A stretch of DNA of 64,000 nt from the IMG/VR virus record IMGVR_UViG_3300048670_000735, positions 1-64,000 of that record; one strand, given 5' to 3'. Position 1 is the stretch's first letter; each line of letters begins with the position of its first letter. Both the position numbers and the translations under genes were made by a program. The stretch comes from a virus (Duplodnaviria; Caudoviricetes). Positions 55,801 to 58,800 of the stretch are shown here, piece by piece. The notes beneath the pieces are model-generated. The model made no database searches. It worked only from the letters and a program-made list of their open reading frames with translations, and was not told where the DNA came from.

Positions 55801-58800
55801 AGAGGTTCAAAAATATCATTAAGAAATGTCGGCGGATATATAGGTGGTCTTGTAAAAAGATCAAAGAAGAACTACGGAATTAGCTTTGAAGATTCAGAGC
55901 AGATGCGTAGATATACTGAATATCATACGTCATCAAATTTTGACCAGTATGCAAAAGCGGCTTCAATTGCAAATGATGCAGAAGCACTAGTTGCTCTTGG
56001 GCTAAGCCCAGAAGAAGCTGTAAAGGAAGCAGATCGCTGGTTTGAAAAGAGATACAATAAAGCTTTAGAAAATAACAATGGAGTATTTAAGCAATCAGAA
56101 TTTGATAAAGTTACACAAGAAAGCTATTCTGATTTACAAAAAGATTTAAAGAAAAGATACGGTATAACAAAACCTATCTCAAAAGAATGGCGCACACTTT
56201 CAAAGTCTGGAAGCCAGCAGATGAAGGCACAGCGCTGGAGATACACAAGTGGAAAAGTTGATTACACAGTAAGAAACAAAATATTTGATTTACTTGGAGA
56301 ACCAGGGAAGAGATTAAAGAAAGAGGCTGCCTTTGCAAATCAAGAGCGAGCACACTACACATCTGGAAGCACACAAGCTAAATCTGGATTTAACTATTTA
56401 GGACAGGCAGTAATACAGCCTTGGGAAATTAATCAGCTTGCTCACGAGCTTTCAAGATATGGAGTTATACAAAATTCATTTTCTTTGTCATCTGCTGAGA
56501 ATAAACAGCAGTTTGATAGAATTGCAAAAAATTTAGGATACTTAGATCACGATGACATGTTGGAAAGCTTAAAGGGCAAAAAGAGTTCTCCAGCAAAACC
56601 TCCTAGAGTATTTAAAGTTGAAAATGGAATGACAGCGCCATTGCGTAAAATGGTTTCTTCTTCACCTGCACAATTTAAAAATTACATGAGATTGCCAGCC
56701 GTAGCAAGAATGCTCACTTTAGCTGGAGCAAGACTTAATGCTGGAGGAGCAGTTGGTGGCTCAGTCCGTAAAGGAAAATATAATTACGGAAAACTTCCAG
56801 CATGGATAATCAGAAATGAAAAGATCAAAAACCTAGCCAACACTGATCCAGCACATGGTGTTTTACAAATTGGTAAATATCACCCAGCCTTGCATGTTAG
56901 AAATCAATATGTTGCTCCTTCTATTAGATATAAGAGTAACTATGAACCATTTACATGGGACAAAGGTCCTAATGCTGGTCAAACTTTCTATTCCCCAAGA
57001 AGAACTGGCGGAGCACCAGCATTTGAAACTGGAACAATAGAGACAAGAGCAAAAACTGCTCTATACAATTATATGCAGGGTGACTATCAAGCAATTAATG
57101 ATCCAGCAGTTCAGGCATATCTTTCAACCATAAGAACTAAATTTACAGGAACACTTCATAGAGGAGTTAGAAACATATCTAGCCTTCCTCCTGTAATTAG
57201 TAATTTAATTAAAGAAGGCAGATGGGATGATCTTGTAGGCAAAGAGTTTATTATGCGTCGCTCATCATGGAGCACAAATAAAGATACTGCAGAAGGCTTT
57301 GGTCAAATTCAGCTTATTGCAAACGTAAAAAATAGAAATGCTGTGCCAGCATCTGAAATATTTCCAAACTTAACATTCCAATCTCCACAGGGACCAGTAC
57401 CAGTAAACGAAAGTGAAGTTTACATGGGAGGTAAGTTTAGAGTTATTGGAGCTGATAAAAATAGATTAAAGCTACAAGCAATATATGATGCTGCTCGTGA
57501 AAATGGCGGACCAGTAAATGCTGGAAGACCTTATCTTGTTGGAGAAAAGGGTCCAGAAATCTTCGTTCCAAAAAATGCTGGAGGTGTAATTCCAGGATAC
57601 AACATGGGCGGAATGGTAAAGTCAATGATGATGAGCTCACTTGGATACATGGGTGGTTCTGCGCTTGGAGGAATGACAGGCTTGCCAGGCGGAGCAATGA
57701 TTGGCGGAATGCTTGGCTCAATGTTTGGAATGGGCGGAGGCTCATCTATGGGAAGAGCTCCAAGGCCACAAGCAGAAGGTCCATTAAGAGAAAATGGAAT
57801 GTTTGCAAAAAATTTATCTGCAGAGCATTTTACAAAACCAATAGGTCCAGCAGGAAAACTTGCAGATAAGTTAAATCTGCTTGGATCATCAGGTGGAAGA
57901 TTTTCTAGTGTTTTAACAAAAATAGGACCACTTCTTGCAAGACTTCCAATGGCATTTAATCCAGTTGGGGTTGCAATTGCAGCAGTAACAGCAGCTACAG
58001 TTCTTGGGGTTAAAAGATGGAAAGACCATAATGAACATTTAAGAATTGGAATGCTTCAATATAGCTTAACTGCAGAAGCAGCAAAAAAAGCTGGAGTAAA
58101 ATTTACTGATTACAATACAAAGCTAGCAGATACCGTTACAAATATTCAAGCAATAAGAGAAAGAAATCAGCTTTTGTATGAAAGCATGGAGTCTGCTGGA
58201 ATGCCAATAGAGATGACTATTGAGCAATATAAGAAATTGCGTAAAGAGGTTAAGTCATCTTATGCAGACCAAATTAAATTAATTAATCAAACAAAGGGAC
58301 CAGGGGATACAAGAAAGCTTGCAGAAGATCTTAAGATTCAGTTAATGGCAGCAGGCATGTCAGCAGAAGATGCAACAAAGAAAATTTGGGCAATGTTTAA
58401 ACTTTCTGAAAAAGCAAAAGACGCTGCAACATTTACATTAGGAAACTCTGGCTTTAATAACATAAAAGATGGTCAATCTGTAGCAGTAAGTGCAATATCC
58501 AGATACAGCGCTGCAGCAAAAGAAGGCGGACGTGAAGGCGCAGGCGCAGTACAAACTGGACTGACATCAATAGATGCTGGCATACAAGACATGATTGCTA
58601 GAAGCAAAAAAGCAGCCAAAGCAGACAAGTCTGGCAATACAAAAGTATTAACTGAATATCAGGCACAAGAAGCTATGCTTAATAAATTAAATTCTCTTGA
58701 GTCATCAAAAGCAAGATTAACAAAAGCAACAAGAGATGAAATGATTAAGCAAAACCCAGAACTTAAAAAGATTATTAATCCACTAGACACAATTGTAAGT

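Follow-up and report, generated by a model that had tools for sequence, protein, structure and literature searches.

The tail tape measure protein (TMP) of an uncultured long-tailed phage very probably contains, in the middle of its 2,497 residues, a genuine domain of the ADP-ribosyltransferase (ART) fold, as judged from a predicted structure. The protein is encoded by a single open reading frame (ORF) in the window, by which is meant the whole stretch of 64,000 nucleotides analysed here, positions 1 to 64,000 of the IMG/VR virus record IMGVR_UViG_3300048670_000735. The ART domain (TMP residues ~1405-1556) is a cassette that is optional and can be exchanged, while the rest of the TMP scaffold is highly conserved; this was missed in a preliminary description made from the sequence alone. 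The conservation of its active-site residues makes it likely that the domain is catalytically competent. As an explanation of the whole, a C3/VIP2-type mono-ADP-ribosyltransferase of the arginine-serine-glutamate (R-S-E) clade, brought into the host with the TMP, appears reasonably probable; its delivery by the tail and its action early in the new host, which are argued by analogy, are plausible but tentative.

Predicted fold and conserved residues

The region corresponding to TMP residues 1396-1565 (57004-57513) was modelled with AlphaFold2 (AF2) on an alignment of 30 sequences (A1), which comprised the window domain, four IMG/VR loci and 25 diverse family members with 33-85% identity to the window. 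Residues of the model are numbered such that R53 is R1448 of the TMP. The model had a mean predicted local distance difference test score (pLDDT) of 80.9 and a predicted template modelling score (pTM) of 0.72. Comparison with the PDB by Foldseek gave 73 matches at E ≤ 0.001, and all matches listed were ART or ART-like effectors, these included XopAI, C3bot, HopU1, Vis, the Listeria ART-ARH toxin, Tre1, C2-I, C3lim, Certhrax, iota Ia, ExoS, VIP2 and CDTa. Realignment of Foldseek's best 999 chains with VIA-align yielded 123 at Z ≥ 8, the best 50 of which were all ARTs. The highest match, 8za7_B, had a Z score of 11.7 and a root mean square deviation (rmsd) of 2.9 Å over 134 aligned residues (model residues 10-160), and matches with Z 11.7-9.8 spanned model residues 10-161.

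When 48,161 representative chains were searched independently with VIA, 19 reached Z ≥ 8. Ranks 1-18 (Z 11.7-8.4) were ART enzymes or toxin domains, the ART label of XopAI and RHS2 not being taken from their titles, and rank 19 was anthrax lethal factor, the second domain of which is VIP2-like. The mono-ART domains of the SidE family followed at Z 7.1-6.6, while the first chain without a link to ARTs scored 3.8. Scabin (4.2), diphtheria toxin (3.4), Arr (3.3) and pertussis toxin (3.0) were far below the C3 and VIP2 chains, which places the domain structurally in the C3/VIP2 subgroup. The adjacent 288-residue module of the same TMP, which served as an internal control, found no fold (zero Foldseek matches at E ≤ 0.001; best VIA Z 4.7 of the 48,161 chains). 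Among virus structures in BFVD there were 57 matches at E ≤ 0.001, including phage ARTs, ModB and fusions of an ART to MuF, portal or minor capsid proteins, the MuF-ART of phage Percival among them; none of the 50 listed of these 57 was named tape measure. The predicted model and the structure searches agree on the split beta-sheet core of the ART fold. The preliminary description had proposed an ART-like domain inside the TMP at 57058-57489, an extent that almost exactly covers the predicted fold, and the check it had suggested with AlphaFold and Foldseek produced that fold, with named top matches of the C3, VIP2, iota and Tre1 type.

The interval 57058-57489 on the plus strand comprises 144 codons without a stop (TMP residues 1414-1557), and its translation contains, in order, ALYNYMQGDYQAIN, TLHRGV, RRSSWSTNKDTAEGF and NESEVYMGGKFRVIG. 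Conservation was assessed in 111 distinct full-length domains, gathered by extending A1 with a hidden Markov model (HMM) and diverging to about 33% identity. R53 is invariant in these, and the residue preceding it is H in 49, Y in 46 and F in 16. S88 was present in all 111, followed by W (104) or F (7) at position 89 and by S (107) or T (4) at position 90, so that the S-T-S motif of ARTs occurs at the end of its strand in the variant form S-[W/F]-[S/T]. Both E136 and E138 were found in 111 of 111 domains, while 11 different residues were seen between them. Residues invariant in A1 include Y23, G26, R53, G54, R85, R86, S88, E136, E138, G142, G143 and F145. Invariance of R53, S88, E136 and E138 combined with a freely varying middle position of E-x-E is what purifying selection would be expected to produce at catalytic residues, and the placement of R53, S88-W-S90 and E136-x-E138 on the strands is the canonical ART layout. 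The ordered R, S-x-S and E-x-E motifs of the preliminary description were thus borne out across the family. The Y....Y..IN helix to which it also drew attention resembles the Y-x-G-S-G-Y-x-D-I-N of the T4 Alt family and is the only stretch touched by a Pfam ART model.

Two explanations were rejected. A chance occurrence of the motif is incompatible with conservation in 111/111 domains and with fold matches at Z 11.7-8.4, against 3.8 for the first unrelated chain; a separate gene or a frameshift artefact is incompatible with a frame that is open throughout and with 92 clusters of the same architecture.

The cassette, the tape measure gene and its surroundings

The distribution of the domain was investigated by a length-blind HMMER search with TMP residues 1374-1577 against 1.84 billion representative proteins, which gave 46 matches at E ≤ 0.001, 35 at E ≤ 1e-10 and 18 at E ≤ 1e-30. 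Almost all of the 46 were proteins of 2,000-3,700 residues, matched near residues 1,250-1,600; a few of the weakest, which were repetitive proteins or touched only a VGE-GPE motif, were excluded. The conserved VGEKGPE motif of the window TMP comes after the ART. Among proteins of 1,373-4,370 residues a word-indexed search detected the domain in 92 clusters (90% identity). PF10145 was borne by 87 of the 92, a few also had CHAP, LysM or OmpA, and none had an ART label in Pfam; source names were either 'TP901 family phage tail tape measure protein' or uninformative. A stand-alone form of the family was found neither by the length-blind HMMER search nor by a search of 91-357-residue proteins with A1, the latter yielding two short proteins that covered 56% and 9% of the query and are probably fragments, as they lie on contigs of 2.6 kb and 1.2 kb.

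With the N-terminal 800 residues of the TMP as the query, 3,715 of 8,000 scored candidates matched at E ≤ 1e-20. Identity was 82-100% for the 120 best of these backbones, and only seven of the 120 contained the ART. When the TMP was compared with these 120 by BLAST, homology was complete to about residue 1,000, fell stepwise to 7/120 at residues 1,351-1,550 and was found again in 97-117 from residue 1,551 on. In 105 of 111 relatives the renewed homology starts at query residue 1560, a breakpoint that directly follows the final strand of the fold. Mosaicism was also evident between individual relatives: P0059 is 99% identical over residues 100-900 and 83% in the ART, against 89% and 95%, respectively, for P0051. 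The remaining 113 of the closest backbones (P0133-P0245) hold another module in the slot, 536-725 residues long in five examples. These alternative fillings form one similarity cluster without a Pfam match, and a Pfam scan of three ART-less relatives detected PF10145 only. The filling of P0133 has a stretch reminiscent of a kinase catalytic loop; an Atlas look-up of this filling gave leads scoring below 0.9 (PI3_PI4_kinase on 16% of one cluster, HipA_2 and LepB_N), which were not relied on.

A second variable module lies upstream of the ART, between two copies of a 16-residue direct repeat (GGxxGGxVxxxKxNYG; Table 1). It was present in six of 13 related IMG/VR loci. Its AF2 model had a pLDDT of 73.8, and no recognisable family emerged from the Foldseek and VIA searches given above as the internal control. 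The invariant polar residues of this module in its own alignment (A3) are H16, D33, E50, R157 and H159.

Table 1. Positions in the window of the tape measure gene, its modules and the portal gene
Feature	Position	Strand	Remarks
Portal gene	43892-45478		Separate gene, not fused to TMP
TMP gene	52819..60312	+	Single ORF, 2,497 aa
Conserved N-terminal TMP core	52819..55806	+	aa 1 to ~996; in 118-120 of 120 closest relatives, 82-100% identity
Hydrophobic segment in N-terminal core	54427-54531	+	TMP aa 537-571; hydropathy
First 16-aa repeat copy, GGYIGGLVKRSKKNYG	55831..55878	+	TMP aa 1005-1020; left joint of helical module; regex and translation
Variable, mostly helical module	55879..56742	+	TMP aa 1021-1308; no recognisable fold
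Second 16-aa repeat copy, GGAVGGSVRKGKYNYG	56743..56790	+	TMP aa 1309-1324
Predicted ADP-ribosyltransferase fold	57031..57486	+	TMP aa ~1405-1556; AF2 model
Arg1448 (R53), H-R-G motif	57160..57162	+	Near the end of the first core strand (45-55); R in 111/111
Ser1483-Trp-Ser1485 (S88-W-S90), S-T-S equivalent	57265..57273	+	Closes strand 81-90, then helix 93-97
Glu1531-Ser-Glu1533 (E136-x-E138), predicted catalytic E-x-E	57409..57417	+	Loop/strand junction; strand 138-151
Right cassette joint	57496..57618	+	Homology resumes at aa 1560 (RENGGP...), then conserved RPYLVGEKGPEIFVP motif
Gly/Met/Ser-rich stretch	57589..57768	+	TMP aa 1591-1650; composition scan
Predicted hydrophobic (transmembrane-like) helix	57931..58020	+	TMP aa 1705-1734; Kyte-Doolittle window 19, peak 1.78

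Domain and family matches identify the ORF at 52819-60312 as the TMP gene. The product on record for it is P0049, which has a later start and 2,447 residues. PF10145 (PhageMin_Tail) was assigned to residues 239-438 (E 3e-27) by a Pfam scan and TIGR01760 by NCBIfam (E 8.7e-32), and 11 of 12 PHROG matches were labelled tail length tape measure protein. The ART domain ends ~30 residues upstream of the Gly/Met-rich stretch and ~150 residues upstream of the hydrophobic helix. Directly after the ART cassette stands the conserved RPYLVGEKGPEIFVP motif (57526-57618), and the motif recurs, as PTIVGDRGPELAF, near the TMP C-terminus (residues 2392-2420, 59992-60078); phrog_30701 and phrog_1538 match residues 1553-1599, that is, the first copy, RPYLVGEKGPEIFVP. 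Comparison of the TMP with itself by BLAST detected no significant internal repeat, and the short repeats came to light through visual inspection and a regular expression (regex).

The source of the window is a linear IMG/VR record of 75,153 bp, which is estimated to be 65% complete and has ~37% G+C. Its structural genes are arranged in the order portal, protease, capsid-type protein, adaptor, Ig-domain tail protein, two small ORFs, TMP and minor tail proteins, one of which, after the TMP, exceeds 1,092 residues. The TMP is the largest gene of the tail module; on one side it is flanked by the pair of small ORFs that come after the Ig-domain tail protein, and on the other by the distal tail proteins. 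No sheath gene was found among the proteins scanned, and from this layout the virion would be siphovirus-like. The two small ORFs directly upstream of the TMP, 52145-52477 (phrog_10504) and 52555-52809 (phrog_10474), belong to families of unknown function and lie where genes for the tail assembly chaperones G and GT are usually located. Among cultured phages, those with the nearest TMP cores infect Streptomyces (127 records) and Gordonia (97 records), with identities that do not exceed 38%, and from such sequence similarity an actinobacterial host is possible. Elsewhere the phage has genes for tRNA-Asp(GTC) (4133-4207, minus strand) and tRNA-Ile(TAT) (13779-13854, plus strand). At 6200-9600 on the minus strand there are ~15 small head-to-tail ORFs of 41-88 residues, none of 100 or more, which resemble an early-gene block, and at 12000-14000 the G+C content drops to 0.279 from ~0.37 elsewhere.

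Family placement, proposed mechanism and competing explanations

Several observations weigh against the interpretation of the domain as a transferase delivered with the TMP. One is that no sequence method puts it in any ART family above threshold. Pieces of 144, 170 and 264 residues matched no family above threshold in Pfam, PHROGs or NCBIfam. In a scan with PF03496, two of the 30 A1 members were matched, with 13.7 bits (E 0.041 against all Pfam), and the DRAT model of Pfam likewise matched two of 30 below threshold (best E 0.03). A six-frame search of the 75-kb record with PF03496 had a sole candidate, 57046-57183 (12.6 bits, E 0.0026), which covers only profile positions 19-63, from the N-terminal helix through the Arg motif; neither score reaches the gathering cut-off of 23.4 bits, while T4 Alt scored 126.9 bits in the same search. 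Against the PDB, phmmer gave four matches, all at E 1.6 (Ero1), and hmmsearch with A1 gave one at E 1.4, which are attributable to chance. Alignment of A1 by hhalign with T4 Alt (probability 0.15%) and with a seven-member Alt family alignment (probability 1.65%, E 0.03) was not significant; the register was off around the Arg motif, yet FIMRR-SSWS was paired with FRNFVSTS. The comparison of the preliminary description with VIP2/C2 and with T4 Alt/Mod, as members of one R-S-E clade, therefore holds for the VIP2/C2-type fold but gained no profile link to T4 Alt.

The ADP-ribosylating turn-turn (ARTT) loop is a further difficulty. It is defined, in passages of PMC7827354, as X-X-phi-X-X-E/Q-X-E with an aromatic phi at position 3, and SdeA and SidE are described there as likewise having no aromatic residue at phi. 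In the window the loop reads PVPVNESE, with Pro at phi, and in the family this residue was Tyr in only 19 of 109 loops and otherwise S, P, K, A or H, which implies that substrate recognition differs from that of C3 and Ia. Two other points concern delivery and protection. The TMP of phage T5 is a trimer that fills the lumen of the tube, with its C-terminus at the tip (passages of PMC10038345); three folded 19-kDa domains would be tight in such a lumen, so that unfolded or staggered storage followed by refolding would be needed. Furthermore, no eraser or immunity gene of the ARH (PF03747) or Macro (PF01661) families was found in the 75-kb record, which is ~65% complete.

Relatives were also sought in genome records. 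There was no match to the domain by blastn or tblastn in 50,697 GenBank phage records, a set from which records of its own genome were perhaps excluded, and a scan of 185,579 species genomes with patterns from A1 gave 52 pattern matches and zero relatives, hence no prophage copy or host. As fold and motifs are positive and sequence similarity is below threshold, the domain is filed, on predicted-fold and motif evidence, among the R-S-E ARTs as a divergent branch that had carried no label before, and not as a member of PF03496.

The proposed mechanism is modelled on T5. A TMP with the enzyme would be built into the tail tube, the domain presumably being packaged in a folded or refoldable form. 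Upon receptor binding the TMP would be expelled C-terminus first, as in T5; its C-terminal half would leave first and the hydrophobic segments would enter the membrane or envelope. The ART module would enter the cell next, before the N-terminal core and the DNA, would refold, and would use cytoplasmic NAD+ to ADP-ribosylate a host macromolecule. The invariant E-x-E points to protein arginine as the probable acceptor, as in Ia, in which the sixth-position Glu of the ARTT loop pairs with the target arginine (passages of PMC7827354). The benefit to the phage may be takeover of the host or counter-defence. RNA polymerase or defence proteins, named as possible targets in the preliminary description, are conceivable by analogy with T4 Alt. 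Passages of PMC10038345 report that a cleavage separates the hydrophobic stretch of the T5 TMP from its enzyme domain and that the protein is expelled once the receptor is bound; according to the proposal made there, the hydrophobic part forms a channel and the periplasm receives the enzyme part. Entry of the T5 TMP into the inner membrane is given there as undetermined.

As an ART needs NAD+, the domain can act only in a cytoplasm, either that of the new host, which is preferred here, or that of the cell producing the phage. In the latter case the late-made TMP would modify host or phage proteins, for example by shutting down late-acting defences or altering virion parts, and the ART would then be a passenger in the tail or be trimmed off. 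The fold and the invariant catalytic residues fit this equally well, it needs no crossing of the inner membrane, a step unsettled even for T5, and TMPs are known to undergo proteolytic processing as the tail is assembled (both from passages of PMC10038345). It is nevertheless unlikely, since a late cytoplasmic enzyme needs no fusion in the middle of the ruler, the family was found only within TMP-length proteins, the slot adjoins membrane-type segments, and fusion to virion proteins is the accepted signature of injected phage ARTs (passages of PMC9503650).

It is similarly improbable that the domain has an ART fold and NAD+ pocket and is not a protein-arginine transferase, acting instead as an NAD+ glycohydrolase or as a modifier of nucleic acids or small molecules. 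NADase effectors with an ART fold and ARTs that target RNA or DNA exist (PMC13285283 and PMC12340436), as does ScARP (passages of PMC7827354), and the non-aromatic phi position would be in keeping with such an activity. On the other hand, E-x-E and not Q-x-E is invariant; the best structural neighbours are protein-modifying enzymes of the C3, iota, VIP2 and Tre1 type, with DNA-targeting Scabin at only Z 4.2; and depletion of NAD+ would be expected to harm replication of the phage itself. Inactive ART-like domains are known, for instance domain 2 of anthrax lethal factor, and similarity of the TMP domain to known ARTs lies under all thresholds, but it is very unlikely that the domain is a relic without catalysis, kept in the ruler only as a spacer or folding unit, because the R, the S and both Glu are invariant in 111/111 domains despite divergence to ~33% identity while neighbouring positions vary, and a spacer would not keep exactly the catalytic set.

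Delivery of an active ART into the new host is therefore retained as the preferred reading. A broader and more doubtful proposal is that the TMP is a modular injection platform in a very abundant uncultured group of ~115-kb phages, with a recombination-prone slot (joint at residue 1560) that would hold lineage-specific enzymes. In this phage an arginine-type ART would thread the TMP membrane channel ahead of the DNA and disarm or reprogramme a host protein before phage genes are read, as a tail-borne counterpart of the head-borne Alt of T4.

Comparison with known systems

Virion-borne phage ARTs have been described as head cargo, namely T4 Alt and polyvalent proteins (passages of PMC9503650) and MuF-VIP2 fusions (passages of PMC7302621 and PMC9206674), and the scarcity of ARTs in siphoviruses has been explained by a need for head packaging and active injection (passages of PMC9503650). 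The word 'tape' occurs zero times in the main text of this 2022 survey of viral NAD and ADP-ribose systems (PMC9503650). TMP-like effectors of contractile injection systems are known (PMC13277306), and ADP-ribosylation is mentioned there zero times. No description of an ART inside a TMP was found in the literature searched, which included passages of PMC7824862, PMC7302621, PMC7354433, PMC9503650, PMC12014285, PMC9206674, PMC4524720 and PMC13277306; the supplementary architecture tables of PMC9503650 could hold one. If the TMP does contain a conserved and apparently active ART, delivery of cytoplasmic effectors would extend to long non-contractile tails, some portion of the TMP would need to enter the cytoplasm, and the middle of the TMP would be a swappable cargo bay that offers a route to new takeover or anti-defence enzymes. 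The family is large: the TMP family exceeds 3,700 clusters, of which at least 92 (90% identity) carry the domain, all annotated only as tape measure protein.

The TMP domain shares its predicted fold with the C3 exoenzymes, VIP2, iota Ia/CPILE-a, C2-I, CDTa, Certhrax, Vis, ExoS/T, HopU1, Tre1 and the Listeria ART-ARH toxin (PDB 8za7), over ~130-140 residues (Z 11.7-9.3, rmsd 2.9-4.0 Å), and with C3/VIP2-type enzymes it also shares the order aromatic-Arg, S-x-S, E-x-E on equivalent secondary-structure elements. It differs from the C3/VIP2-type enzymes in having 13-20% identity and no significant sequence or profile match to them, in the S-W-S that replaces S-T-S and in an ARTT phi residue that is not aromatic. 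Moreover, it lies in the middle of a 2,497-residue phage tail protein and is neither secreted nor stand-alone.

VIP2-like ARTs fused to MuF, portal or minor capsid proteins, and polyvalent proteins, also have an ART on a virion structural protein, which has been read as packaging for injection (passages of PMC7302621, PMC9206674 and PMC9503650; also PMC5576092). In these systems the carrier is a head protein and the ART is C-terminal, whereas here the carrier is a tape measure and the ART is internal. A Pfam scan detected no MuF or portal domain in the 2,497-residue TMP.

Enzyme modules in tape measure proteins have precedents, and the TMP of mycobacteriophage TM4 has a peptidoglycan-hydrolase motif. 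A parallel in arrangement is pb2 of T5 (pb2* and the muralytic pb2C), a TMP in which an enzyme module stands beside a hydrophobic membrane-inserting stretch and which is expelled at infection (passages of PMC10038345). The cargo of T5 is a cell-wall hydrolase that acts in the periplasm and lies C-terminal to the hydrophobic stretch, whereas the ART needs cytoplasmic NAD+ and is N-terminal to it (for T5, passages of PMC10038345).

With T4 Alt the likeness is one of enzyme type and proposed logic. Alt is a head-packaged, injected arginine ADP-ribosyltransferase of the Pfam family PF03496. The Y-x-x-x-x-Y-x-x-I-N helix and the order aromatic-Arg, S-x-S, E-x-E are common to Alt and the TMP domain, and both may be regarded as virion-borne R-S-E ARTs of phages, a location known for Alt and probable for the TMP domain as part of a virion protein. 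In both cases the enzyme would be delivered before phage genes are expressed. Alt, however, is a separate protein of 682 residues inside the head, whereas the TMP domain is part of the tail ruler.

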